DNA of 61,061 bases from Bacteroidales bacterium (lineage in GTDB: Bacteria; Bacteroidota; Bacteroidia; Bacteroidales; F082): assembly GCA_017549605.1 (NCBI GenBank), contig JAFYUH010000137.1:1-61061 (forward strand), written 5' to 3'. Every line of letters starts with the position of its first letter. Position 1 is the first letter of the stretch. Shown here piece after piece: positions 121 through 37,204 of the stretch. The notes beneath the pieces were generated by a model. It did not search any database, had not been told where the DNA came from, and worked only from the letters and a program-made list of their open reading frames with translations. The position numbers and the translations under genes are program-made.

Positions 121-127
121 TTATTAA

Positions 128-220
128 GACGCCAAGTCACCAAGTCACCAAGACACCGAGGTTCTTAGTTCAAGGTTCAGAGTTCAAAGTTCAGAGTTCA
201 AAGTTCAAAGTTCAAAGTCC
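128..220. repeat. Adjacent word runs: CACCAAGT-type (128-161) then GTTCA[AG]A heptamers x8 (161-220)
   Basis: Direct reading: 'gacgccaagtcaccaagtcaccaagacaccgagg' followed by 'gttcttagttcaaggttcagagttcaaagttcagagttcaaagttcaaagttcaaagtcc'. Confidence 0.85.
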
Positions 221-1646: not shown

Positions 1647-1742
1647 AAGACACCAAGTCACCAAGTCACCAAGTCACCAAGTCGCCAAGACCCTAAGTTT
1701 TTTTAAACTTGGTGACTCAGAGACTCGGTGTCTTGGTGACTT
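1647..1742 (+). terminator. Long hairpin built from CACCAAGT x4 facing ACTTGGTG-type words, directly after the sdaA stop
   Basis: 'aagacaccaagtcaccaagtcaccaagtcaccaagtcgccaagaccctaag ttttttt aaacttggtgactcagagactcggtgtcttggtgactt'. The arms are largely complementary. Terminator function is inferred from position only. Confidence 0.5.
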
Positions 1743-1754
1743 AAAATTTGAATT

Positions 1755-2318
1755 ATGAAAAGATTATTTCTAGCTATACCGATAAAGACTACAGATAATG
1801 AGTTCGTGCCGCTTCTGGATGGTTTGAAGCGTCAGCTGGCTCATGAGAAACGTATCAACTGGGTCAAGCCGCAGCATATTCATCTCACGCTGAAATTCAT
1901 CGGCAATACTCCCGACGAGGATATTCCTAAGATTATAGAAGGAGTGGAAGAGATGCTGAAAAACCATAAGAGCTTCACTATGGATTTCAACCATACTGGC
2001 ATCTTCGGAAGTCGCTATGCGCCGCGTGTGCTGTGGCTAGGAATGCAGAACACCCCACAGGAACTGTATGATTTAGAAGAAGACACTCTGACTGTCTTTG
2101 ACAAGATAGGATATCTTCGCGACAGACAGAACTTCGTGCCTCATATCACATTGGGACGTATCAAGGAATTGTGCGAGAAACAATACTTCCAGAAGATAGT
2201 GGCAGGAATAGAACAGAAGTCGTATATAAAACAAGAGGTCAACGAGATAATATTGTTCCAAAGTATCTTACGACCTGAAGGAGCTTTCTATAAAGCGATA
2301 AAGAAATTTAAACTTTAG
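1755..2318 (+). CDS. thpR: RNA 2',3'-cyclic phosphodiesterase (2H phosphoesterase / LigT family)
   Basis: 187 aa with two H-x-T-x motifs ('HIHLTLKF', 'HITLGR') at the spacing expected for the 2H family. Ends in TAG. Confidence 0.8.
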   Translation: MKRLFLAIPIKTTDNEFVPLLDGLKRQLAHEKRINWVKPQHIHLTLKFIGNTPDEDIPKIIEGVEEMLKNHKSFTMDFNHTGIFGSRYAPRVLWLGMQNTPQELYDLEEDTLTVFDKIGYLRDRQNFVPHITLGRIKELCEKQYFQKIVAGIEQKSYIKQEVNEIILFQSILRPEGAFYKAIKKFKL

Positions 2319-2380
2319 AAATTCAAAATCTCAGAATCTCAGAACTTCAGAACTTTTGAGTTTTTGAATTTTTGAGATTC
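2319..2380. repeat. TCAGAA[TC]C word hairpin between convergent thpR and acyltransferase; overlaps the acyltransferase 3' end
   Basis: 'aaattcaaaatctcagaatctcagaacttcagaacttttgagtttttgaatttttgagattc'. Confidence 0.8.
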
Positions 2381-3560
2381 TATTATTAAGCCAATTTCTA
2401 ACAGGTTCGTCATATAGTTTCAAACAGATGTATGCTAATGTGATATTCGTTGCCATGACGAGCAGTACCATCTGCCATGTTTCGCCGAGAGTGTATAACT
2501 CATTATCGATGAGCCATGAGTAGAAGAGATACATCACTGGATAATGTACTATATATAAAGGATAGGAGATGTCTCCTAAGAACTTGCATAACTTAGTGGT
2601 GAAGCCGTTTGTGATGTTTGCTGCTGCGCCGAACCATATTATCGCTGGAAAGACCAATATGATACACGATAATTCATAAATGCCGTTAAGACTGACGCTG
2701 CCCGTCTTCGTGATATAAGGCATAGAGAAAAGAACGAACATCACGATTACTGAAAGCCAAAAAATAGTTTGGTCGCTTAGCTTAGACCCCGTACTCTGAC
2801 TTAGTGTCTCGGTGTCTCGGCGTCTCGGCGTCTTATTAAAATTCCTCGACATTAGCATTCCGAGGGTGAATGGGAATAGCATCCTCAATAATCCTCCGAA
2901 GAAATTGACAGCGTCTAAGGTCCAGCCGATGCCTATCATATCGTATGTGGAGATGTCGAAGACGACGAAGCTTGTCCATAATAATCCAGTCATCACGACT
3001 AAGAATGCCAATCCTTTGTTGGATAGTTTTCTTATAAACAAAGCGTACAATATATTACCGATATATTCAAAGAAAAGCGACCAGCTCGGTCCGTTGAGAG
3101 GATACATCTCCCCATTGCCGCGTACATCGTAAGACGCTCCTGGATAAGCAGGGATGAGAAACATGGCAAGGAAAAACGCTACAAGAATCCAGTGAAATGG
3201 CATCTGTGTGCCGTCCCATCTTACTCCGCCTTGAAGGAGATATGTCGCCAGTCCGATGACCGCGCCCATCACCACCATAGGCTGCAATCTGACAAGACGA
3301 CGCTTGAAGAAGCTCCAGACGTTGACCGTTGACACTGACTGTTGACACAGACTTGGTGACTTCCATCTGTCATCATAAGCATAGCTGATGACGAATCCCG
3401 ACAGCATGAAGAAGAAGTCGACGCCGAGATGTCCGTGGTTGAAAGTCTCTATCATAGTGCCGCCAGCGAAGGCAAAACCTTCAAAGACGTGATACCATAA
3501 AACCATCAGAGCCGCTACACCGCGCAATCCGTCGAGTAATAAGTAATGCTGCTTCTCCAT
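2331..3560 (-). CDS. Acyltransferase family 3 integral membrane protein
   Basis: 409 aa, multi-pass hydrophobic, with the acyltransferase_3-type N-terminus 'LDGLRGVAALMVLWYHV'. It carries two in-frame word-repeat blocks, and its last codons plus stop lie in the TCAGAATC hairpin. Confidence 0.75.
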   Translation of the reverse strand: MEKQHYLLLDGLRGVAALMVLWYHVFEGFAFAGGTMIETFNHGHLGVDFFFMLSGFVISYAYDDRWKSPSLCQQSVSTVNVWSFFKRRLVRLQPMVVMGAVIGLATYLLQGGVRWDGTQMPFHWILVAFFLAMFLIPAYPGASYDVRGNGEMYPLNGPSWSLFFEYIGNILYALFIRKLSNKGLAFLVVMTGLLWTSFVVFDISTYDMIGIGWTLDAVNFFGGLLRMLFPFTLGMLMSRNFNKTPRRRDTETLSQSTGSKLSDQTIFWLSVIVMFVLFSMPYITKTGSVSLNGIYELSCIILVFPAIIWFGAAANITNGFTTKLCKFLGDISYPLYIVHYPVMYLFYSWLIDNELYTLGETWQMVLLVMATNITLAYICLKLYDEPVRNWLNNRISKIQKLKSSEVLRF

Positions 3561-3574
3561 AAAATTTTATTGTT

Positions 3575-3634
3575 AGAAATTCAAAATCTCAGAACCTCAA
3601 AAGTTTTTTTCTGAGATTCTGAGATTCTGAATTT
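3575..3634 (-). terminator. Hairpin of TCAGAA[TC]C words between S8 paralog A stop and the acyltransferase start
   Basis: 'agaaattcaaaatctcagaacctcaaaag ttttttt ctgagattctgagattctgaattt'. The arms are about 22 nt with 2-3 mismatches. Confidence 0.5.
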
Positions 3635-6600
3635 TTAATAAACAACTTTCACTGTCTTTACACATTCTTTATTTATCAAGCGAACGATATATGTGCCATT
3701 GTCGAAGCAACTCATATCTATTCTATAGTTGTCTTCTGAGACCTCGTTGCTATAGACGATGCGTCCCATTATGTCGATAATCTGAGCAGTGCCGATGGCA
3801 TTGATGATAAGTTCGTTGCCTGATTGATATACGAAATTGTTATTACAGTTTTCGTCAGATAATTTGTCATCTTTTGTAAATCTTACAACAAAACGATTGC
3901 GGATGTCTTGTGATGAAGCTGTGAATGTGTAGTCGTTCAGAAGCATATCGGTCTTTTCACCTGTGATATTGTCGACGAGAGTGATTGTCTCGAACTCGCC
4001 TTCGCTCTCGATGTGAAGTGTGTAGTTGCCCATTTCTTTTGCTTCGAAGTCGACATTGACTTCCTTGGCGTCTTCGTTACAGTTGTAGATTCCGTAATGC
4101 TTGTCGTTGCTTGTGACATAGATGTTAGCGATTGACTTATTGAAGTTATTCAATTTGTTGAAGCCCTCTTGACCTTCGTAGTTCATACATATTATCAGGT
4201 TGTCTTTGCCGCTATTGCTTGAAGCTATGATGTTGATAGAACGTACTGAGTTGTCGCTTCTTTGTTTTGCTACATTATATGTTAATGTAGGCTTGGTGTG
4301 GATGGCTTTTACGAAGAAACCGTCGCCGGCTTTGATAGTGCCGGATGTTGCATATTCATAACCGCCGTCAGCCTTTACGACAGCGTATCCGTCTGCTATA
4401 TCTTCTTTTTGAAGATTGTCCCAATCCATATCGAATGAGAAAGGATTGCCAAGGAGATGGAAGTTGGCGAGGTCCTTGCCTGTTGCGTAAGACAATGTGT
4501 ATTCGTGTGTCTTCTCGTTGTTGAGGATGCCTTTGAATACGGCCTGTGTCTCGCTTTCATAAGATGCCAAATAGCCTTTGCCTTGTTGGAATGTTGTCTT
4601 GAATTGTCCGCCTTTGTGGTTGAGCCATTCGAGTTCGTTGTTGCCTTCATATTTGTATAAGTCGTAGTCTGATGACTCAGGGATGAAGTCTTCTATATTG
4701 GCGTTTTTCACAGGAGATGAGATGAACTGCCATCCGTTGATGTTTTCGATGCTCCATTCGTCAGGGTTGATGATGTTCATTATGAATGTCGCTGCGACAT
4801 CATCGCTGCTTTGGAATACCTGAGCGCCGTCGTTGATGATGAGTCCGTCTGTATTGGCGTTGATGAGATCATTGTTGACAGTGAGTCTGACGCCTTCGTT
4901 AAGTGTAAGCGAACCGTTGTTGATTGTCATTGAATTTACTTCAACCTCTCCGCTTTCTATTGTAGCGTTGGCGTTGATGAGGATAAGGAAATCGTTAGCT
5001 GTAGGCACTTGTTTCTTGCTCCAGTTTTCTGCGTCATTCCAGAGACCGTCTTGTACGAAGGTGTTAGGGTTCTTATAGATCTTTTCAGACCATTCTATTC
5101 TTGATTCTTTGCTGCCGTCACCAGAGATGGCCACTTCGTCAAGACCTGTGCAGAAACCATATCCCGCAACATTTACGAATGCGATGTGGAATTTCTTGCC
5201 GATAAAGTCGCTTAAGTTGATTTCTACCTTTGTCCATTCAGAAACATTGGTTTTGTTGCTTGACCATACCTCTTTCCATCCGTCGTTATGAGCGGTGTTG
5301 CTTACCATGACTTTCAATGTGTTGACGTCAGTACCCCATGCTGGTGTGATATAATGGAATGACAGACTTATGCTGTTTCCGTCATATTGAGTGTAATCCA
5401 TAGGATCGGTTACCAGATATGTCAAATATGTAGGACTGTTGATATAAGACTTGATGAATGCTGCCTTGTTTCCCATAAAAGGAGTAAATATTGTCGGATT
5501 ATTTACTTGACCGGCGGAGAAGCTTTCCTCAATGACCCAGTTATATTTGCCGTTTTCGTTGTAATAGTACCAGTTTGGATTATTCGCATCATAAAGGGTG
5601 CTTGTAGATAAGCTTTCGAAGCCTTCTTCGTAGATTTTGCCTTGTTGTAAGTATAAGTTAGCTACACCATATTGATAAGCGCCGTCTTGCAATGTGTTCC
5701 AGTTGCTGTCGGTATATGTTTCGCCGTTTATGTTGGTAGCTATTTGTGTCTCTTCGCCAGATGTTTCGTTTTTTCTATAGATATTAGAACCTTTGCTGTT
5801 GTTGCCGTTGCTCCAGCTTATTTCTACATCGTTGCCGTTTACGTTTGCAGCCACATTGCTAGGAGCAGGTGTGCTTGAGTTGTCTTCTGTCTGAACGCGT
5901 AATATTTGAGAATATTCTGATTCTAAGTCTCCGCGTTTTGATGTCATGATGTAACTGTATAAAGTGCTATATTCCAATCCTTCGTCTATGTATGAAGTAC
6001 TTTCTGTATTAGCGAGGAATATCTTGTTGCGATAGATGTTGTAGCTTGTGGCGTTGTTGGTTTCATCCCATGTAAGTTTGATGGAATTGCCTGCAACCTG
6101 AGCGCTGATGCTTGGAGGAAGGAGCTCGTTGGAGATGTTTGCTACAATGTCGAAAGTACGTTTATGGCTTCCATTTGTCGCATTGACAGTGAAAGTGACC
6201 TTGTGATTGTCTGGAACTAATTTGTCGATAGTGATGACGAATTTAGCGGCTGCTGTTGCGTTGGCAGCCATTACGCCCATACTTTCGTTTCCGTCGACGA
6301 TAGTGACGTATTTGTCGTTTGTTGTTATAGTGACATTTGTATTTCCTGATGTTGAGCCTTGACCGTTATTGATTAATGTAAGTTCTAAGTTAAGATTTGT
6401 TCCAGGGATGAAATTGTTAGTGAAAGAATAAACGTTGAGGTAAGGATCGCTGGTGTTGAAATCGACGGCTTGTACGGCAGCGAGGGCGTCGATACAGCCA
6501 GAGCCAGTGTTGTTGTTTTTCTTGTCTGAAAGCTTTACTGCTGTTGTCTCGATTATTCTGCATAAGTCAGATGGTGTGAGTTCAGGGTTTTTCTCGAGCA

Positions 6601-14241: not shown

Positions 14242-17200
14242 TTATTCCTTGACGAAGCGTTTTGTCAAAACTCCATCATTTGTCTTTATCATGATGAAGT
14301 AAACGCCAGCATTAAATTCTGAAACGTCAATTGTTGTGTTTTCTTGGTGACTTGGTGTCTCGGTGACTTGGAGTCTACCATAAACGTCATAAACAACAAC
14401 TTCTTCTATCTCGATTTCTGTATCGATATAAAGTTTGTCGTTTGCAGGATTTGGATAGATACGGAATGATGATGTGTGTTCATCGATTGCGTCGTCAACA
14501 ACAGTGACGGTATATACTTCTGATGGTTCAGATTCTGTTTCGTCATTGAATGCAACTACATAGAATTCAAATGTGATTTCTTCATTTGTTCCTATCACGT
14601 ATGCTGTGCCGTTTGTGTACCCCATGTGGAAATCTTGTGCGTTGTCGGTGTTTACATAAACATCGTAACCTGTTGCGCCTTCAACGGCATCCCATGCCAT
14701 TGTGATTTCGAATTTGTATCCATAACCAGGAACGTCTTGTCTGATAGCTGCTCTTAAGTTTTTAGGAGCTTCGAGTTTTGCAGGTTCTGGATTTTCAGCC
14801 TCGAATGTTGTAGCGCAAGCGTCTTCTGATTTGTCAGATTTACCTTCTTTATTGACTGCAACGACGTTGAAACAATATTGTGTGTTTGCTTCCAAATCGC
14901 TGACGGTGTATGTTGTTGCTGTTACGGCCAACTTAACTGTTTCTTCACCGCTATAGATGTTGTATCTTATTGCGTTTTCAACAGCTTCCCATGTCAATAC
15001 TATTGTTGATTCGCTTGTTGCTTCTGCTGTTACTACAGGTGCTGCCAATGTTGGTACTTCTGGCTCTATTGGTTCATCGCCTGTATCTTCTAATGTTGTA
15101 GCGCAAGCGCTTTCTGACTTGTCAGACTCGCCGAGTTTGTTGACGGCTGTCACGCTGAAGCAGTATTCTGTCTCGGCATTAAGACCGTTTACGGTGTACA
15201 TTGTGCTTGTGAGTTCTGATGCAATCAGTTCAGTGCCTTGATATACATTGTAGCTTGCAGCTTCTTCAACATAATCCCATGCTAAAAATATAGAAGATTC
15301 GTTCACAGCTTCTGCTGTTAAGTTGGTTGGAGTTGCAGCTTCTGTTGGTTCTAATGTTGTTGCACATGCTTCGTCACAGAATCCTGATTCGCCAGAACTA
15401 GTGATGGTTGTGACTGCATAGCAATATTGTGTTTCATAAGCAAGCTTGCTGTCGGTGAAAGAAGGTTCTGTTACAGTAGCGACTTTCTGTCCGTTGCGAT
15501 ATACGTTGTAGCTGTTAGCAGTGTTTACAGCATTCCATTCCAAAGAAATCTTTGAACTGCTTATTGCTGTTGCTGTGAGGTTTTCAACTTTAGGCAATAC
15601 TATTGAGTTGCTTGCTTTCACTGTGAAATAATAAGGGTCATCGTAACTGTAAGTTGAAGTGTGCTGTATATTCATGCTGACATTTGAGAAAGTGATGTCA
15701 TCAATGTTTAAAGCATCATAGTCATATCCATAATATGAGTCTTCCCATTCTTGTGCTGTAAAGAAGTGACGTATAGCGATATATATATCTTGACCTGCGT
15801 ATGCGCTTAAATCAGCAGTGTATTGTGTCCAGGTTGTTTTTTCGCTTATTACCCATTCTTGGATTGTAGTAAAGTCACTTGCAGAAGCATTGCCATTTGT
15901 TGACACAGCAAGTCCGAAATGTTCTTTATATCCAATATTGTTGTTACCTCTTGCATAGAAACTGACTTTACTGTTTCCTGTAATTTTAACTTTTTCAGGA
16001 GAGACGAGATAGTTGTCGATAGGATTGTATACTTGTGCGACACCATTTTGATTTGAAATACTCATAAGGTGACCTTTTCCTGAGAAAGACTCTTTTACAT
16101 TTGTTAGAGTAGTTGCATCGGTGCTGTGTAGCCAAGCCACTTTGGTGAAACTTCCCCCAGCTTTGAAGCTAGTCCAGCCTTCCATATCGTTTTCGAATTC
16201 ATAAACATAACTTGTTGGGTTAGTATATTCTGAATGTGTTTCAAGGAAGAAGTCGAAGCTATAACTTGGTTTAGTTTCAGGTAATTTTGTTTCAATAGTG
16301 AATGTTCCTGTTCCAGTTTCGCCTACGCCTAATGCAGGTATTGTTGTCTCTGCATCAATAAAATCTACATATTTTAAGTCGCCAGTAAGCGTCTTGAGGC
16401 TGAGTGTGATAGGAGAAGTGAATGCTGCTGTTCCATTGTTGATCACAGTGACTTTTATGTCGTTTGTTGCATTAGTTTCTACCACTCCAGGGCTCACAGA
16501 TTGGAAAGCCAAGTTTGGCATTGTTGTGATATTGACAGAGAATGTGTTTTCCCATGAAAAATTGCCGCTTTTTGTTGTGACAGTAAATGTTACAGTGTGA
16601 CCGCTTGGTGTGTCATTAGAGACATTGATGTTGAAGAATAATGATTTAGTGTCGCCAGCTCCGATTCTGCCTGCTGTCTGTGTTGGATTAGCGATTGTTA
16701 CGTATGGGTCGTTTGCCAATGCCAATGTCACTGTTGTGTTTTCATCACTTGGACCATTACCTTCATTTTTTAATGTTATGCCGATAGTATTGCTACCTGT
16801 TGATATTGTTGTTGGAGCAAATGTGTTAAGTTTAACGTAAGGATTGCCAACGACTTCGGTGATGCTGTTTACTGCTGCGAGAGCGTTGACGATACCAGCG
16901 CCGACGGTGTTGTTTTTTGTAGATGGTTTTGAAGTTGCTGTTGTTTCAATAATTTCTGAAATCTGAGCTGGAGTGAGTGTTGAGTTCTTTTCCAACATAA
17001 GGGCTATCACACCAGCAACTATAGGTGTTGCTTGTGATGTTCCGCTTTTCAATTCGTATATCTCATTGTTGTTATATTTTGTAGAACGTATAATATAACC
17101 TGGAGCTGAGATGTCAGGGCGGATGAGACCCATTGACTCTCCGTTGTTGTAAGGATAGTCATTGTAAGAAGTTCCTTCCCATGTTGAAGGACCGCGTGAT

Positions 17201-21392: not shown

Positions 21393-21439
21393 TTGAAAAT
21401 TGAAAATTTGTAGACAACAGTCAATGGTCAACAGTCAGG
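21393..21439. repeat. TTGAAAA x2 and CAACAGTCA-type words abutting the palindromic element
   Basis: 'ttgaaaattgaaaatttgtagacaacagtcaatggtcaacagtcagg'. Confidence 0.7.
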
Positions 21440-21532: not shown

Positions 21533-23554
21533 TCAAAGTTCTTTAACAAATCTCTTTACAATATTTCCGTTTGCAGTATTTATCTTAACGAAATAAACTC
21601 CGCTATTCAGATTAGAAATATCTATTGATATCATTTCTTGGTGACTTGGTGACTCGGTGACTTGGTGTCTTCCGTAAATATCATAAACTATCACTTCCTC
21701 GATTTCGCTTTCAGTCTTGATGTATAATCTGTCTTTAACCGGATTTGGATATATGCAGAAGTCTTTGTCGTTTTCTGTCAATGATGTACCGTTCTGTAAT
21801 GTGAATGTATGTCTCCAGCTAGGATGTCTTGAGAAATTGCTGATGCTGATATCATCGATGCATAAGATGAAGATGTCGGTACTGTTGAAGTGACGTATTG
21901 CTAACCAGATGTTTTGACCTACGTATTCGCTGAGGTCGACGGAGAAATATGTCCATTCTTCACCGAGACGATTGTCGGATGTCAGCGTCCATTCTTCTAT
22001 GGTGGTGAAGTCGTCGGCGGAGGTGCTGCTTTTTGTTGAAACGGCTACTCCGAAGTGTTCGCCTGGGACGGTCTTGTCTTGCATCGCTGCCCAGAACCCG
22101 AATGTCGTTTCTTCCTTGACATGTATCATAAAAGGAGAGACGATGTAGTCGTTAGGCATAAGTTCCGACAATATGATATTGCAGAACGACTCGCTCATGA
22201 GGTGTCCTTTGCCTGAGTGCGATGGTATCATTGTGACGAAATGGCCGTCTGATTCAGATGTGTGATACCATAAATGATCGTCGTTGTTAGCGTTTATGGT
22301 AGTCCAGCCTTCGAAGTCATTGTTGAAACTATAACTGATGTCGATGTTTTCTTCGAATGTCTCGTTGGCATAGATGTCGATGTTGAATGTCGCGATATGT
22401 CCTTCAGGCATAGAAGCATCGGTGGTGAAAGAGAATGAGTGTGTGACTTTCTCATTGCAAGCCATCGGCTCTAACAGATATTCGCCTTGTGTTATTGTGA
22501 CGAATTCATCGTCTGTCGACAAAATCGCTTTTGCCTGATATGATGATTCTTTCAAGCCATTATTGACAAATGTGACATCGAGATTCATCTCTTTGCCTGC
22601 AGCGAAGTCTTCGTGAGAGATGGCTTCAACGACTATGTTTTCCTGTGGGTTGTTGCCTTTTAATGAGAACTCGTTGTTCCATTTCATCGGCTGCATCACT
22701 CCTGTCAGCTCGACATCATCGACAGCGAGGAAGTATTGGTCGAAGCAATCGAAATGGCGTAATGCCATCCACACTTCCTGTCCTTCATATTCGCTTAAGT
22801 CGACGGTGTATTGATACCATGTTCCTTGGTCTCTGCTGCTTTTGGCTGTCAATGTCCATTCTTTTATTGTGGTGAAGTCATCGGCGGAGGTGTTGCCTGT
22901 CGATGATATTGCAAGACCGAAATGTTCTGCTGGATATTCGCGATCTTGAGCGCATGCCCAGAAACTGAAGGTTGCGTCTTTGCCTAATTTGAACTTCTCA
23001 GGTGTGACGAGATAGTTGTCAGGATATAAGATATCGAAGGTGTTGTCGTACGATTGAGAGAACATACAGTACATACTTTCGCGGCCGTGGCCTACTCCCA
23101 ATCTTTTTCCCGACTCGATCCAGTTGAATCCGTCGCCGTCAGCATCGATGGTTGTCTATCCTTGGATGCCGTCTTCGAAGTCGTAATAAAGATATGACTC
23201 TATGCTGCTGTCTTCAAGAACAGATTCTATGCTGAAGCTGATGTCGCTGTCGTGTGGTAACAGCTCGTTTGCTGTGATGACGAAGACAACTTCCTGTGTC
23301 GCATTAGGAGCCAATGGTTTGCAGATGGCTTCAGCATTGACGATGGTGATATATTTGCTGTCGCATTTCAATGTGACATGAGTGTCGTTTTCTGTCGCGA
23401 CCTCGCCATCGTTTATGAGTGTGACCTTTAGTTCAATATTCTTGCCCGGTGCTAAATTAGCATTCTCGCATGAATGAAAAGATATCTTAGGAAGCTGAGC
23501 GAAACCCAACTGTAAGAAAAGAGAGAATAAAAGTGTAAGTAATGTTTTTTTCAT
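21533..23554 (-). pseudogene. T9SS-sorted protein with two cleaved-adhesin/choice-of-anchor-J-like modules, interrupted by one in-frame TAG
   Basis: ORFs 23156..23554 (signal peptide 'MKKTLLTLLFSLFLQLGFAQ') and 21533..23101 are in the same frame (23158-23101=57). They are separated only by TAG at 23156..23158. The read-through is '...FEDGIQG*TTIDADGDGFNW...', and the second module of the same protein has 'FEGWTTINAN', so the stop replaces a conserved Trp. Confidence 0.8.
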
Positions 23555-23638: not shown

Positions 23639-25375
23639 TTATTCTTTAACAAACCTCTTTACAATATTTCCGTTTGCAGTATTTATCTTAACGAAATAAA
23701 CCCCGCTATTCAAATTAGAAATATCTATTGATATCATTTCTTGGTGACTTGGTGTCTCGGTGACTTGGTGTCTTCCGTAAATATCATAAACTATCACTTC
23801 CTCGATTTCGCTTTCAGTCTCGATGTATAATCTGTCTTTAACTGGATTTGGATATATGCTGACATTATTTGTGAACTTGTCTTCTATGCCAGTGATATCT
23901 TTATAGTCTTCTATTTCTTCTAAGGCTAACATTGCGTTGACGCATCCTGATCCTGTCTCGTTGCTTTTTGTCTCAGACAGTTTTGTTGCTGTTGTCTCGA
24001 GAGCTTCGCATATCTGTGCAGGAGTGAGGTATGGCTTCTTTTGTAACATGAGGCATACTACGCCAGTGACGCATGGTGTTGCCTGTGATGTGCCGTCCAT
24101 GCTGATGTATCCGCTGCTGTTGGTGTTGCTGCAAGATATGATTCCGACGCCAGGGGCGCATACGTCAGGACGTATGAGGCCTATCTCTCTTCCAGGTAGA
24201 TAAGGATAGTCTTCGTATGATGATGTCTGCCATGTGAAAGGTCCTCTTGATGAGAAATCGGCGACAACGTTATAATAGTTGACCGCGCTGACCGCGATGC
24301 ATGCTGAGAGTCCGCCAGGGTTTGCTTGTTGGTCAGGGTGGAGCCATGGAGGAGGACAGCCGCCTGGTACTCTAACGCTGTTAGGCACAGGGAATGTGAG
24401 GTTGAGCATGCCGTCGTTGCCTACTGCTGTCATGATGGCGACATTAGCTTCGAGGGCGTTTTCGTATGTCTGACGTAATGCTTCTCTTGTTGACATTGAG
24501 GCGTTAGGGAATCCTAATGACATATTCAATACGTCGGCGCCATGTTCTATAGCGAACTCGATTCCGGAGCATACGGTGTTGGCGTTTCCGCCGCCAGCGT
24601 CGTCCATAACTTTGATGCACATTACAGTTGCGTCAGGAGCTATTCCTGTCTGTGTTCCAGAGGTGCCGTCGCCGCAGATGATGCCAGCGCAGTGAGTGCC
24701 GTGGTTGAAGCCGTCGTGAACGTCATGGCTGTTCTCGAAAGTGTTGTAGCCGTGGTTAGGATATTCCTCGCCGCCGTCCCAAAGGTTTTTCTCCAAGTCT
24801 TTGTGGAAGTTGACGCCCGTGTCTATCACGCCGACGAGAACGCCTTTGCCAGTGTAACCTTCGTTCCATGCTTTATTGGCATTCACGTGCTTGATGTTTT
24901 GTGTCATGCCTCTTTGAGCCTCGACTTCTCTCGCTTTTTCATTCCATAAGAGAAACTGTGTCTCGTTGTAACCTATTATCTTGATATCATAATGTTCTGA
25001 CAACAAATAGATGTAGTCTTTGCTTGCAGTACATGTTATCATATTTGAAAGCCAGTGAGCTGTGATGTCTTTGACGTCGCCGCTTGCTTCGCCGGCTTTT
25101 AACAAAGACAAGATGTCTTTCTGTGATTGCTCAGAGAAATTTTTGAGTTCACTTACAACAACTTGACGTTGTGCCTTGGCGTCTTCTGTACTTTGTATGT
25201 TTTTTCTTAAATGGCTTATGTTAGCTTCTGATTTAAGAATGATGTTGACGCTGATCATGTCGTTGCTTTTTGAGTCAAGAACATTTTGAAGTTCAGGCTC
25301 GATGACGTTGTAGTTCTGCGCAAAGCCTATCTGGCATGCAAGTAATGATAGTAATAATAATAGGTGTCTTCTCAT
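23639..25375 (-). CDS. Subtilisin-like S8 serine peptidase with T9SS sorting domain (paralog E, minimal architecture)
   Basis: 578 aa. It has a signal peptide, an I9-like propeptide, triad motifs 'VGVIDTGV', 'HGTHCAG' and 'GTSQATP', and then directly the C-terminal domain 'SIYPNPVKDRLYIETE...GVYFVKINT...RFVKE'. Confidence 0.88.
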   Translation of the reverse strand: MRRHLLLLLSLLACQIGFAQNYNVIEPELQNVLDSKSNDMISVNIILKSEANISHLRKNIQSTEDAKAQRQVVVSELKNFSEQSQKDILSLLKAGEASGDVKDITAHWLSNMITCTASKDYIYLLSEHYDIKIIGYNETQFLLWNEKAREVEAQRGMTQNIKHVNANKAWNEGYTGKGVLVGVIDTGVNFHKDLEKNLWDGGEEYPNHGYNTFENSHDVHDGFNHGTHCAGIICGDGTSGTQTGIAPDATVMCIKVMDDAGGGNANTVCSGIEFAIEHGADVLNMSLGFPNASMSTREALRQTYENALEANVAIMTAVGNDGMLNLTFPVPNSVRVPGGCPPPWLHPDQQANPGGLSACIAVSAVNYYNVVADFSSRGPFTWQTSSYEDYPYLPGREIGLIRPDVCAPGVGIISCSNTNSSGYISMDGTSQATPCVTGVVCLMLQKKPYLTPAQICEALETTATKLSETKSNETGSGCVNAMLALEEIEDYKDITGIEDKFTNNVSIYPNPVKDRLYIETESEIEEVIVYDIYGRHQVTETPSHQEMISIDISNLNSGVYFVKINTANGNIVKRFVKE

Positions 25376-29460: not shown

Positions 29461-29486
29461 GTAGAGACGTCACTCCTGTGGCGTCT
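29461..29486. repeat. Palindromic-element core 'gtagagacgtcactcctgtggcgtct' (intergenic copy) followed by TTAGGA[AG]T words
   Basis: The same 26-mer, as its reverse complement, occurs three times inside CDS 36215..37204. Confidence 0.8.
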
Positions 29487-29580: not shown

Positions 29581-31998
29581 ATGAAAAGTATGAAGAATGA
29601 TAAGATAGAGTTGTTGAATAGGTTTGTGCAAAACACGGACGTTCATATCTTTTTGACAGGAAAAGCTGGTACTGGAAAGACGACCTTCCTTCGTAACCTG
29701 GCGGCCAGTACATATAAGAGAATGGTCATTGTGGCTCCTACTGGCGTAGCTGCCATCAATGCGGGTGGCGTGACGATACATTCGTTTTTTCAGCTGCCTT
29801 TCGGTCCTATTGTGCCTGATGGAGAGCAGTCGTTGTCGTTGTTGTCTAATAAGATAAGCAAGACTAAACTGAAGATCATGCGCAGTCTTGACTTGCTGGT
29901 CATAGACGAGATCAGTATGGTTCGTGCCGACCTCCTCGATGCTGTCGACGCCGTATTGCGAAAAGTACGTCGTAGCAGCGCTGCTTTCGGCGGAGTGCAG
30001 CTGCTCATGATCGGCGACATACAACAGCTGGCTCCTGTGGCGCGACAAAACGAATGGGAACTGTTACAGCCTTATTATAAGTCTGTGTATTTCTTCGATA
30101 GTAAAGTGTTGAGCAGTAATCCTTATATCTGCGTGGAACTGGATCATATCTATCGTCAGAATGACGAGGATTTTATCAATATACTCAATCAGGTGAGAAA
30201 TAACAGACTGGATAAGAAAAGCGCCGACTTGCTCAACCAGCGTTATATGCCTGACTTCAACCCTGAAGATAAAGAAGGTTATATCACACTGACGACTCAT
30301 AACTCTCAGGCAGATGAGATAAATGAGCAGAAGCTTGGTGCTATAGATTCTAAGTTGCTTACTTTCAACGCTGAGATAAATGGGATATTCCCAGAGAACG
30401 CGTATCCTACAAAAGAGACTCTCGAACTGAAGGTGGGCGCACAGGTGATGTTCGTGAAGAATGACCCTTCGCCTGAGAAACAGTATTACAATGGCAAGAT
30501 TGGAAAGATAATATCATATAATTCAGACGAAGGTCTTGTAGTTCAATGTGAAGATAATGTTATCAATGTGACTCCGGTGCAATGGCAGAACTTTGAATAT
30601 ACTCTTAATGAAAAGACTAACGAGATAGAGGAGAAGGAGATAGGCAGCTTCACTCAGATTCCGCTGAGAACGGCTTGGGCTATCACTATACATAAGAGTC
30701 AGGGCCTTACATTCGACAAGGTGATTCTCAATGCAGAGATGGCTTTCACTCACGGACAGGTATATGTGGCTCTCAGCCGCTGCACTTCCCTCAAAGGCTT
30801 GGTGCTTAAGTCGAAGATACAGAATAATATCTTGTTTAACGATAACACCATAAATGCTTTCGTTGACAAGATACCTTCTCTTGAACCTGATAAAGAACGC
30901 CTTGCAAAAGAAGAATATAAGTTCTTGCACCACATGATCCTCGATTTATTCTCTTTTGGAAATCTTGAGACTCAGATGAACCGACTCGCTAAGGTGGTTC
31001 GTGAGAATGATAATATCTTTGATAAGGAGGCTGTGAATCATATCGCTGAGCGACGCCGACTTTTTAGAGAGGAGATAATAGATGTGGCGACACGCTTCGC
31101 TCGTCAGATCGACTCTATATTGCTCAATCCTAATGCCGACTTTAACTACCTTCAAGAGAGAATAAAGAAGGCCTCTGCTTATTTCTTCGACAAACTCAAT
31201 GAGTTGGAAAACATTGGCGACCATATAAACGAAACCGACAATAAAGCTGTCAACCTCTCGGTCAAGACGGTCTTGGATACGATAAGGGAGATTCTTTATG
31301 TCAAGACGGCTTGTGTCAATATGACCAAAGAAGGCTTTGACCTGGAACGCTTCCTTGAATTGAAAAACAAGAAAACTGTTGAAGCAGAGAACCTTTCTTC
31401 TTCAAAGTTGAAGTCGAAGACGATGGATAAGAAAGACCAGCCTTTGATGAATGCCTTGATGAAATGGCGTGAGGAAAAGGCAGAAGAGTTCGACAAACTG
31501 GAAAATCAGATACTTCCAAAAACAGTGTTGCTGCGTATCGTTGAGCAGAAACCTGTTTCTATAAGAGAACTTAAAGAAATCTCGAAACTTGGTATCACAC
31601 GTATAAAGAGCTTCGGATCTGACATTATTAATATGGTGCTGAAATACGAAGGCTTGGCTCAGAAGAACTTCGACGACGAGGAGTCAAAGAAAGAGATGAA
31701 TCTGTCGAGCAGCGTGCTTAAGACCTTAGAGCTTCTGGATGAAGGTGTGGAGATAGATGAGATTGCTAAGGAGAGAAATTACTCCCGTTCGACCATAGAG
31801 AATCATGTCATTGAAATTATCAAGAATGGTCTTTATACTGTGGAAGACTTTGTGGATAAAGAACATCTGGAAACGATAACAGAATATTTCGAGGAAGTCG
31901 ATGACACATCTTTATCTGCGGCACGCGACGTCCTCGGTGATGAATATTCGTATTTCGAGTTGAAATTAGGATTGATGTTGAAAAACCTTAACTCATAA
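29581..31998 (+). CDS. Pif1/RecD-like P-loop DNA helicase with C-terminal HRDC and HTH domains
   Basis: 805 aa. Walker A is 'GKAGTGKTT' and Walker B-like is 'LLVIDEISMV'; 'TIHKSQGLTF' is typical of RecD/Pif1 motif V. An HRDC-like segment lies around 'LMKWREEKAEEFDKLENQILPKTVL'. The start codon lies inside a TTAGGAG word run, and an alternative ATG 3 codons downstream is possible. Confidence 0.75.
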   Translation: MKSMKNDKIELLNRFVQNTDVHIFLTGKAGTGKTTFLRNLAASTYKRMVIVAPTGVAAINAGGVTIHSFFQLPFGPIVPDGEQSLSLLSNKISKTKLKIMRSLDLLVIDEISMVRADLLDAVDAVLRKVRRSSAAFGGVQLLMIGDIQQLAPVARQNEWELLQPYYKSVYFFDSKVLSSNPYICVELDHIYRQNDEDFINILNQVRNNRLDKKSADLLNQRYMPDFNPEDKEGYITLTTHNSQADEINEQKLGAIDSKLLTFNAEINGIFPENAYPTKETLELKVGAQVMFVKNDPSPEKQYYNGKIGKIISYNSDEGLVVQCEDNVINVTPVQWQNFEYTLNEKTNEIEEKEIGSFTQIPLRTAWAITIHKSQGLTFDKVILNAEMAFTHGQVYVALSRCTSLKGLVLKSKIQNNILFNDNTINAFVDKIPSLEPDKERLAKEEYKFLHHMILDLFSFGNLETQMNRLAKVVRENDNIFDKEAVNHIAERRRLFREEIIDVATRFARQIDSILLNPNADFNYLQERIKKASAYFFDKLNELENIGDHINETDNKAVNLSVKTVLDTIREILYVKTACVNMTKEGFDLERFLELKNKKTVEAENLSSSKLKSKTMDKKDQPLMNALMKWREEKAEEFDKLENQILPKTVLLRIVEQKPVSIRELKEISKLGITRIKSFGSDIINMVLKYEGLAQKNFDDEESKKEMNLSSSVLKTLELLDEGVEIDEIAKERNYSRSTIENHVIEIIKNGLYTVEDFVDKEHLETITEYFEEVDDTSLSAARDVLGDEYSYFELKLGLMLKNLNS

Positions 31999-36214: not shown

Positions 36215-37204
36215 TTATATAAATCTTCTTTCAACTAAGTCGTTTAATTTCTTATAAGCTTCAGAGGTGCAATCCCATTGGAATTCAATCTGAAGCTCGC
36301 TCATATAAGTCTTGGCTCCCAATAAAGTGGAGAAGCTGTTCAATGATCTTATGGACTTGTTATATTTCTCCATGCTTCCGCCAAACAATTCATTGAGGAA
36401 TAAGAACTTGTCGTTGATGCCTATTGCTGTTATCAAGTCTGACACAGGCTTGCGTTGCAGACGAGCGGCGAGACTCTTGTCCTCGCTTTGTTCCAGCATG
36501 TCGCCAAGTGTTGGGATATTCTCTCTTATTATACGATAAGCCCTGATGCCAGAGTCCTCTTCTTTTTCAGAAACTTCCTTTTTGGAATCAACGGCAGTAT
36601 CGCTTAATGAATCAGTGATGGGATCTTCTTCTTCTTCTTCAGTATCAGAAACTTCATCTTCTTCAAAGTCCTCAACTCCTAACTCCTCACTCCTCACTCC
36701 TAACTCTTCAGACGCCACAGGAGTGACGTCTCTACATTCTTCAATTCCTAATTCCTCACTCCTAACTCCTAACTCCTCAGATGCCACAGGAGTGACGTCT
36801 CTACGTTCTTCAATTCCTAACTCTTCTTTGGTGAAATCCCAAACCATATCAGCTTCCTCATCGCTTTCCTCTTCATTTCCAAAGTCAATGAGTTCATTGT
36901 CATCATTATCTTCATCTTCAAACTCCTCAACTCCTAACACCTCATTCCTAACTCCTAATTCTTCAGACGCCACAGGAGTGACGTCTCTACGTTCTTCAAT
37001 TCCTAACTCCTCATTCCTAACTCCTAATTCAATGGAACAAATCGTGTCGTATAATTTTCTTGTATTTTCCATCAATAAATCGACATCAAGTTGATTCATC
37101 GGCATCTCTTTTCTAATCAGAAAATTAACCTGATTAGACATCTTGTTTAGCAATGTTTCTATTTCAAAAATTATACGGTCTTGCTGATTATTTCGTTGTT
37201 CCAT
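36215..37204 (-). CDS. Hypothetical acidic protein carrying three in-frame palindromic-element copies
   Basis: 329-aa ORF with ordinary-looking N- and C-terminal parts. The central third consists of 'EELGIEE(R/C)RDVTPVASEELGVR(N/S)E' x3, encoded by the same DNA as the intergenic element at 29461..29511. No family was recognised. Confidence 0.55.
   Translation of the reverse strand: MEQRNNQQDRIIFEIETLLNKMSNQVNFLIRKEMPMNQLDVDLLMENTRKLYDTICSIELGVRNEELGIEERRDVTPVASEELGVRNEVLGVEEFEDEDNDDNELIDFGNEEESDEEADMVWDFTKEELGIEERRDVTPVASEELGVRSEELGIEECRDVTPVASEELGVRSEELGVEDFEEDEVSDTEEEEEDPITDSLSDTAVDSKKEVSEKEEDSGIRAYRIIRENIPTLGDMLEQSEDKSLAARLQRKPVSDLITAIGINDKFLFLNELFGGSMEKYNKSIRSLNSFSTLLGAKTYMSELQIEFQWDCTSEAYKKLNDLVERRFI
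36670..37030. repeat. Three in-CDS copies of [CCTAACT]n + 'agacgccacaggagtgacgtctctac' + TTCCTAA words
   Basis: The cores lie at 36710..36735, 36779..36804 (one substitution, 'agatgcc') and 36965..36990. Confidence 0.85.

Follow-up and report, generated by a model that had tools for sequence, protein, structure and literature searches.

In-frame octanucleotide arrays in the loops of an acyltransferase-3 gene of a ruminant-gut Bacteroidales lineage

How does a tandem array of 8-nt words, akin to arrays that lie between genes, come to be read in frame within the gene of a membrane protein? We addressed this question in a 61,061-nt stretch of Bacteroidales DNA (contig JAFYUH010000137.1 of assembly GCA_017549605.1; hereafter the window), in which a stand-alone acyltransferase-3 (AT3) membrane protein of 409 aa is encoded at 2331..3560 on the minus strand. 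The nearest genomes are uncultured Bacteroidales metagenome-assembled genomes (MAGs) from the hindgut of yak, buffalo, cattle and deer, some of them named Candidatus Limimorpha. The open reading frame (ORF) matches PF01757 (Acyl_transf_3; Pfam, E 3.8e-34, residues 9-379). Its translation, read against the motif set of Pearson et al. 2020 (PMC7448272), carries the hallmarks of the class, namely R13-X10-H24 (R/K-X10-H in transmembrane helix (TMH) 1), FFFMLSG (FFxxSG, the FFXISG-type motif of TMH2) and R88-L-V-R91 (the RXXR before TMH3). An original prediction, made from the letters alone, had placed an in-frame repeat block at 2796-2835 of this gene, and the sequence is as it had been quoted: ctgacttagtgtctcggtgtctcggcgtctcggcgtctta, then ttaaaa, antisense to the ORF and encoding NKTPRRRDTETLSQS in the minus-strand context ...SRNFNKTPRRRDTETLSQSTGSKLSDQTIFW... 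/ ...LGMLMSRNFNKTPRRRDTETLSQSTGSKLSDQTIFW.... We put at roughly 60% the probability that this block is a near-neutral passenger, tolerated by its gene, of a process that makes 7/8-nt arrays across the genome, with reading frame, stop codons and the hydrophilicity of the encoded peptide acting as filters.

Read in gene sense, from 2834 down to 2799 on the minus strand, the core of the block is AAGACGCC GAGACGCC GAGACACC GAGACACT AAGT, that is, four 8-nt units and a 4-nt tail, 36 nt in all, which supply 12 codons (K243-S254, KTPRRRDTETLS). The array is imperfect, its units differing by 1-2 bases; Tandem Repeats Finder (TRF) returned a period of 8, 3.5 copies and 95% matches at 2806-2833, so that at least three head-to-tail copies of a unit in the 5-11 nt range are present, as in STRR sequences (short, tandemly repeated and repetitive). 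The block is indeed in frame, but the length of about 45 nt first ascribed to it was loose: the array proper measures 36 nt (2799-2834), and the variable loop that holds it 75 nt (2763-2837), which is 42 nt longer than the alternative allele of a 92%-identical ortholog.

The array is one of many in the window. A strict caller found 18 arrays in the 61 kb, 12 of period 7 and six of period 8, and none of period 5, 6, 9, 10 or 11, while 20 Markov-1 simulations yielded no period-7 or period-8 array and averaged 0.4 of period 5; arrays of period 7 and 8 are far beyond chance. Most lie between genes: the non-coding 6% of the window contains 10 intergenic and three gene-edge arrays, and the coding 94% contains five. 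Words of the form AAGWCRCC occur at six places (126, 1647, 2811, 14346, 21640 and 23743), and by these words the coding block can be assigned to the AAGWCRCC family of intergenic arrays. The claim that it is an in-frame copy of an intergenic array family thereby held up, the block being built of AAGWCRCC words and, as described next, clade-specific.

We extracted the AT3 ortholog from 80 species-level genomes. In Bacteroides, Phocaeicola, Parabacteroides and Alloprevotella (57-66% identity) the array site between TMH6 and TMH7 (loop 2) is a loop of ~7 residues (KPMKVKG-like, 'KPxKVxG'), and the loop between TMH2 and TMH3 (loop 1) has 8 residues (GKSLTMKD); long array-coded loops are limited to the window and to the clade loci L001-L015. 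Since the other genera have short loops at the site, the segment counts as a derived, clade-specific addition, and no equivalent charged segment was seen there in unrelated taxa, where only 'KPxKVxG' stands. In 34 close orthologs (70-98% identity, 377-471 aa) there are three hypervariable sites, one following DDRWK, another following SRNFN and the third at the C-terminus, and the peptides that fill them look like translations of repeats (SPRHRDTETP, KTTRLQDNKTTS, RDVTPVASQNVTPVAS..., QSAVPEPVEGKVRRFDKLSDRT, SELRTQNSELRTQN). In most species of the clade both loops hold (AAGNCNNC)x4 + AAGT, again 36 nt and 12 codons. The word varies with the species (AAGACTAC, AAGACAAC, AAGACCAC or AAGTCAAC, and RAGACRCC in the window), and in every species the arrays begin at a Lys AAG codon right after the conserved W66 or N242.

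In loop 2 the array is fused to the remnant of a hairpin element, CAGAGTACGG-GGTCT-AAGCTAAGCGACCAAACTATT (2763..2798, minus strand), which codes for Q255-I266. When the loop DNAs are set side by side, this remnant is 33 nt short of the core TGCCTGAGCCTGTCGAAGGC...GCGCTTCGAC, which is complete in L086 and L087. Loop 2 of L086 (=P0009, ~80% identity) consists of AAT, AAGACCAC x4, AAGTCAGAGCACGG, TGCCTGAGCCTGTCGAAGGCAAAGTTCGGCGCTTCGAC (TGCCTGAGCCTGTCGAAGGC..GCGCTTCGAC) and AAGCTCAGCGACCAAACTATT, while that of the window, between the same flanks, consists of AAT, the four units, AAGTCAGAGTACGG, GGTCT and AAGCTAAGCGACCAAACTATT. By this comparison, loop 2 of the window is accordingly a decayed composite of a 4-unit array and a hairpin element from whose core 33 nt have been deleted. 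The single 45-nt insertion first envisaged gives way to this composite, in a gene that has two further colonised sites. A 24-nt unit, (C)AGAATGTCACCCCTGTGGCGTCT (QNVTPVAS), is tandemly repeated 2-4x in loops 1/2 of the AT3 genes of L007, L015 and L087 and is also found between genes at 29466-29485 of the window; its 24 nt are frame-neutral.

The comparison also decides what the block shares with the intergenic run at position 121, to which a 12-of-13 match had been noted. That match holds: the degenerate pattern TTAWTAAGACGCC has exact hits at 121-133(+) and 2827-2839(-) and nowhere else. The element boundary that had been read into it, 'TTAATAAGACGCC', dissolves on inspection. Eight of the 13 matched bases are the first word, AAGACGCC, and the other five (TTAAT) lie within TTT-AAT (2835..2840, minus strand), the gene's own codons F241-N242, which stand upstream of every loop-2 content in the clade orthologs; F241 is invariant in the ortholog alignment A1. 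TTTAAT (or TTCAAT, TTTAAC, TTCATG, TTTATG) precedes 8-mer arrays, 7-mer arrays (AATGCCAACAGCCAAC, AATGTCAAAAGTCAAAAG) and the RDVTPVAS hairpin unit alike, and other arrays of the family abut unrelated sequence, with TGG/AAG in loop 1, ..CGG/AAG in protein sorting domains and TAA/AAG after sdaA; the block has thus kept no end of an element.

In-frame arrays of this kind are also found in other genes. Each of three type IX secretion system (T9SS) C-terminal sorting domains, in S8-peptidase/adhesin genes, has a 3- or 4-unit AAGWCACC array between 'YGR' and 'IDxS', one at 21640..21671 on the minus strand (..YGR HQVTESPSHQ EM..) and its sisters at 14346-14369 and 23743-23774. The Por_Secre_tail matches keep their normal length (70 aa on profile positions 1-74) despite the array, so that here the array replaces ~12 domain residues rather than adding to them. 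Arrays in T9SS sorting domains were also seen in two metagenome contigs (L116, L156). An acidic ORF with no Pfam match (36215..37204, minus strand) contains three in-frame composites of AGGAGTT-type 7-mers and the hairpin GTAGAGACGTCACTCCTGTGGCGTC (arrays at 36669-37030), which read EELGVRNEELGIEERRDVTPVASEELGV; unit variants such as AGGAATG occur in it where an in-frame TAG would otherwise fall, and its hairpin unit is tandemly repeated in the AT3 loops of L007, L015 and L087. In L141 (JAEIGA010163302.1) a shikimate-dehydrogenase-like ORF has an in-frame KTPSHQVTKSPS array at 2276-2310, before the Gly-rich motif, and a second array (ELGVRSVELGV) further on, by which cytosolic housekeeping enzymes would be colonised too. 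Given these in-frame arrays in T9SS domains, the acidic ORF and L141, the AT3 loop array is one instance of a lineage-wide habit.

An array of 8-nt units with a 4-nt tail keeps the frame only with 1, 4, 7... units. In the array census, 22 of 30 AAGNCNNC-type arrays have exactly four units, followed by AAGT or AAG, and no frameshift was found in either loop among 15 genome loci and seven metagenome contigs of the clade. Intergenic arrays have 2.8 to 5.6 units (TRF). The only length change seen in coding arrays is one of 24 nt, or three units: loop 1 of L083, L084 and L085 has exactly CACCGAGA x3 more than that of the window, and for L083 (=P0002, 96% identical protein) this is the sole difference there.

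Contingency loci, such as the tetranucleotide tracts in lipopolysaccharide genes of Haemophilus and Neisseria, offer another reading of a repeat whose unit is no multiple of three in a gene of cell-surface modification, namely that slippage by a single 8-nt unit turns a surface-modifying acyltransferase off and on. The unit length and its position within an ORF of a family that modifies cell-surface sugars would suit such phase variation, as would the unit changes of 8 and 16 nt that separate samples at 2345-2354, in the array of the neighbouring 3'-end hairpin (contigs); hepta- and octanucleotide tracts also appear in the discussion of H. influenzae simple sequence repeats in PMC2651432. We nevertheless regard a switch as very unlikely. 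The tract is short and imperfect, with 3.5 copies, and frameshifted alleles were not seen, the 15 loci and seven contigs reading through both loops and three-unit steps being the sole coding length change. No 8-nt indel was found at 2806-2833 in the contigs of four runs, though one occurs 450 nt away; these are assembled contigs, in which rare variants could be hidden. Nor would switching make much sense for the housekeeping and secretion-signal contexts in which arrays also stand.

Copies of the array and of the composite are dispersed. In L159 the same array, the AAGTCA..AAGTCAG junction and the hairpin sit 3' of an unrelated folK-like ORF, and the hairpin arm GGTCGCTGAGCTTGTCGAAG adjoins word arrays in further intergenic regions. 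In metagenomes containing the window the summed contig depth rises from ~20 to 92-120 over 2767-2860, about 5-fold, and separate short contigs match exactly 2799/2800-2834, the 36-nt array. Loop contents have also been exchanged as a whole. In L081 (=P0003) the flanks are ~4% diverged from those of the window (41/1050 positions), yet loop 2 is an unalignable 33-nt RGCCAAA 7-mer array. In L086, loop 1 is built of xCACC words and loop 2 of (AAGACCAC)x4, and in L087 it is the other way round, a swap that would take either ~8 correlated substitutions in each array or a replacement drawn from another one. Against P0005 the gene diverges as a mosaic, by 4.5% before loop 1 and by 20% past loop 2, which shows homologous recombination among lineages with breakpoints near the loops.

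These data bear on whether the arrays simply grew where they now stand. Lys/Thr-rich loops with AAG-N5-AAG could have expanded locally, each site for itself, the likeness to intergenic arrays being convergence by slippage bias. The constant start of the arrays at the Lys AAG codon and the Lys-rich loops of the outgroup speak for such growth, arrays of arbitrary octamers arise in many unrelated organisms, and a slippage bias towards periods 7-8 has been put forward before (Mrazek 2007, in the summary given by PMC4679880). We hold this to be possible though doubtful, since growth from one to four units by single steps crosses frameshifted states, the array and its specific hairpin with the same junction in L159 imply that the composite moved as a piece, the swap between L086 and L087 needs correlated substitutions or replacement, and contigs of other loci match the exact 36-nt stretch.

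Dispersal of small repeats recalls miniature transposable elements with inverted repeats (MITEs) and Rickettsia palindromic elements (RPEs), and many dispersed copies, in-frame ones in unrelated ORFs included, are indeed found here. Terminal inverted repeats or an overall palindrome are absent from the coding block, which is single-armed, and the flanks of family members are unrelated local sequence; the sole flank duplication, AAG at both array ends (AAG...AAGT), is the start of the repeat unit itself. Lacking inverted termini and a clear target duplication, the block falls outside the MITE/RPE class on the tests made. No transposase, RAYT or reverse transcriptase appeared in the Pfam annotation of 27 of the 33 window ORFs. 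Nor do the coding copies have significant RNA structure: 2770-2870(-) folds with z -0.9, 42 of 200 shuffles folding as well, and 3300-3380(-) with z +0.2. RNA folding gave the coding block no stem of the kind expected of an intrinsic terminator, and Rfam returned no family at gathering score anywhere in the window.

AT3 domains have 10 TMH with both termini cytoplasmic, and their cytoplasmic loops are normally short (PMC9833829); OafA has a periplasmic TMH1-2 loop, and its RXXR sits in loop 2-3, where TMH3 starts (PMC7448272). By OafA topology, loop 1, which holds the RXXR, would be cytoplasmic. A hydropathy scan counted no K+R in the loop at 202-217, six in the array loop (239-264), none at 290-298 and six in the C-terminal tail, and this 0/6/0 alternation, together with the published AT3 topology, would place loop 2 and the tail on the cytoplasmic side as well. 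All three colonised AT3 sites, the loops TMH2-3 and TMH6-7 and the C-terminal tail, are thus predicted to be cytoplasmic. The insert occupies a hydrophilic loop between helices, as had been expected of it, and an AlphaFold model from a 34-sequence alignment (mean pLDDT 46, pTM 0.34), usable for helix positions only, likewise has both inserts between helices.

A charged segment at such a place could also have been recruited, for positive-inside topology, as a flexible gate close to the acyl-CoA site at RXXR or as a linker that binds a partner. Its retention with substitutions in many clade species as K[ST][TP]R..D..T.S, and its position on the predicted cytoplasmic face, the side of acyl-CoA entry, would fit a selected loop. 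We think this unlikely, as relatives at 83-92% identity do without the segment and carry a different, shorter array in loop 2, loop length runs from ~11 to ~70 residues among orthologs, and AT3 proteins normally have only short cytoplasmic loops (PMC9833829). Conservation, moreover, is at the level of the DNA word and not of the peptide, word variants altering residues.

Assembly presents a more mundane alternative, in which a short-read assembler mis-joined low-complexity repeats. Contigs do break or mis-join at the arrays, with joints and loose ends at 2322-2383, 2800-2826 and 3353. The same gene with its block was, however, recovered in independent assemblies from several samples and studies (P0001, P0002/L083; 99% of the words are present in runs X1-X3), contigs of 3.9 kb (X1) and 4.7 kb (X4) span the block gap-free, and the ORF stays open; a chimera is extremely unlikely.

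The passenger reading can be put as a sequence of steps. In this ruminant-gut Bacteroidales lineage, a genome-wide process would make and spread arrays of 7- and 8-nt words, often joined to small specific hairpin elements; the spreading probably proceeds by slippage with short-homology template switching or gene conversion. Between genes, an array would pair with a complementary array to form a long terminator-like hairpin. Single-armed copies would land in genes as well, where they would survive only if the frame is kept, no stop arises, the peptide is hydrophilic (AAG-sense orientation) and the site can accommodate additional residues. Three places of this kind would have been filled in the AT3 gene, the loop TMH2-3, the loop TMH6-7 and the C-terminal tail. 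The loop-2 copy started as a 4-unit array with a hairpin, as in the relatives, and later lost 33 nt of the hairpin. Thereafter arrays would change by whole-unit slippage and by replacement from other arrays, of which coding DNA passes only three-unit (24 nt) steps. Stop codons were considered as the sole cause of the sense-only orientation and rejected, the antisense of AAGTCACC having a TGA but those of AAGACRCC and GAGACRCC being stop-free; amino-acid composition would be the likelier orientation filter. The block itself is most likely inert.

Several points weigh against the passenger reading. With no mobilising enzyme, terminal inverted repeat or target-site duplication found, 'spread' is read from pattern; the arrays always keep to one pair of loop sites and open with a Lys AAG, which also fits growth in situ; the charged loops lie beside the essential RXXR motif and could matter for function, which bears on near-neutrality. 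The topology is deduced, the AlphaFold model being too poor to place the loops structurally, and the length comparison draws on assembled contigs rather than raw reads, so that rare length variants may be hidden. We also entertain, tentatively and at low odds, an active, undescribed mechanism that copies ~four-unit 7/8-nt arrays and hairpin modules to new sites by microhomology and homogenises arrays across loci. If so, one common pool would keep rewriting terminators and protein loops alike, and the arrays would be a genome-wide source of ORF-compatible peptide modules, not slippage debris.

The two other colonised sites of the AT3 gene differ in their make-up. Loop 1 (3312..3362, minus strand; K67-S83, KSPSLCQQSVSTVNVWS) begins with one 8-nt unit and AAGT (3351-3362, 12 nt) and continues as a GTCAACR 7-mer-like run; TRF reported a repeat at 3323-3353 in this loop. 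At the C-terminus the ORF runs on into one arm of an array hairpin, which adds I395-F409 (ISKIQKLKSSEVLRF; 2334..2378, minus strand); the orthologs finish at ..KLLNR or ..RLSRS without this extension and stop at different units. The hairpin, a AGAATCTC/AGAACTTC array at 2311-2382 (TRF rows at 2311-2376), is shared by the AT3 gene and the convergent thpR (1755..2318), and 15 AT3 codons lie inside it. In one relative (L087, 275-2962) a DpnII-type restriction-modification cassette (N6_N4_Mtase, DpnII, MethyltransfD12) sits between thpR and AT3.

Among the intergenic members of the family, the one at 126..157 on the plus strand (AAGACGCC AAGTCACC AAGTCACC AAGACACC; TRF and word comparison) has a single arm. 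The array just past the sdaA stop codon (1647-1742, plus strand) is made of (AAGWCRCC)n, a loop and (GGTGACTT-type)n, and its two-armed hairpin at 1655..1742 has a fold of -45.2 kcal/mol with z -7.0. A two-armed hairpin of AGAATCTC arrays (3573..3638, minus strand), which separates the S8 peptidase gene from the start codon of AT3, folds with -34.4 kcal/mol and z -9.7 and looks terminator-like. Across the two-armed intergenic arrays z ranges from -6.5 to -9.7, and some are followed by a U-run; the sister arrays at 299-373 and 3573-3638 combine a stable stem-loop with a U-run, as intrinsic terminators do, and this is the usual look of the family between genes. At 3635-27715 (minus strand) lies an island of secreted proteases, made up of five large S8 subtilase genes and a Cleaved_Adhesin-domain gene, interrupted by leuS; several have fn3 or Cleaved_Adhesin domains, and a T9SS sorting tail was detected in four of the six.

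Among known systems, cyanobacterial STRRs, the short tandemly repeated heptamers reportedly described by Mazel et al. in 1990, come closest in repeat type. CAACAGT, which forms arrays here at 21415-21437 (TRF), is presumably one of the STRR words. To our knowledge, the origin and function of STRRs have been open since 1990, and no report on STRRs is known to us in which ORFs hold frame-quantised arrays. The likeness lies in tandem 7-nt words of several families, dispersed, mostly intergenic, capable of forming hairpins and tolerated in a functional gene. Unlike STRRs, the arrays described here belong to another phylum, have 8-nt words as prominent as 7-nt ones, are translated and are fused to specific hairpins, and their host is no heterocystous cyanobacterium, the nearest genomes being Bacteroidales MAGs. 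The function of STRRs is given as unknown (PMC2670836), and an STRR is tolerated inside the RNase P RNA gene, to go by the title under which Vioque 1997 is cited.

The likeness to RPEs is one of behaviour. RPEs are described in a review (PMC10969869, for Ogata et al. 2000) as in-frame repeat insertions at fold-compatible places of many unrelated proteins; like the arrays, they are, by the same account, small non-autonomous repeats that occur between genes and unusually often in frame in unrelated genes, to which they add a conserved peptide. In one window and its relatives, we count at least five affected protein contexts. RPEs measure ~150 bp and form defined families, whereas we deal with a 36-nt array of 8-nt words, sometimes with a ~60-nt hairpin, and with a block that has no palindrome, terminal inverted repeat or consensus ends; the host, too, is a free-living gut Bacteroidales and not an intracellular alphaproteobacterium. 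TAACTGA heptamer repeats, which stand directly upstream of start codons and for which a role in translational regulation has been proposed, occur in Beggiatoaceae, Cyanobacteria and some Bacteroidetes (MacGregor 2015, PMC4679880). They and the long simple sequence repeats of Mrazek 2007 resemble the arrays in being short-unit direct repeats of patchy phylogeny and strong intergenic bias, with orientation-dependent stops that limit ORF overlap. The TAACTGA repeats, however, are of one word upstream of starts, while many words occur here, mainly after genes as hairpins and inside ORFs. No paper turned up in literature searches on the DNA words or on the peptides that they encode, and those on Bacteroidales tandem repeats, hairpins and terminators found only general papers besides MacGregor 2015.

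What is unusual is that proteins across a lineage are colonised, in frame-quantised form, by 7/8-nt arrays and hairpin modules. The clade appears to equal Rickettsia in the readiness with which small repeats are written into its proteins, with a repeat type nearer to the cyanobacterial STRRs. The system is tractable, one gene offering three colonised sites and dozens of orthologs with varied words, unit numbers and decay states, and the frame filter (1, 4 or 7 units) makes a quantitative prediction. Gene callers and protein clustering will be misled by ortholog lengths of 377 to 471 aa and by C-termini that run into terminator hairpins, and assemblies break at the arrays. Where KTTRLQDNKTTS, RDVTPVAS, ELGVRNE and similar peptides turn up in metagenomic proteins, they are to be read as repeat translations and not as motifs.

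Looking further afield, we scanned metagenomes for (AAGACRCC-type)x4 and found >120 contigs among the matches listed, with a GC content of 31-74% and many of the arrays as hairpins. Specificity of the AAGACRCC-type word across phyla was considered and dropped, two composition-matched control octamers occurring in viral contigs no less often than the word (1 versus 4 and 2). Soil, marine and mat metagenome contigs (L088-L207, GC 31-74%) hold (AAGACGCC)n and (AAGACACC)n arrays, often as hairpins of the form GAACCGCC(AAGACGCC)n...(GGCGTCTT)nGGCGGTTC, and array-armed hairpins seem widespread across metagenomes. Only two metatranscriptome runs hold 5-6% of the words. The window itself further encodes a PIF1-like helicase with HRDC and HTH_40 domains (29581-31998), and helicases of the PIF1 kind unwind hairpin and G-quadruplex (G4) DNA.

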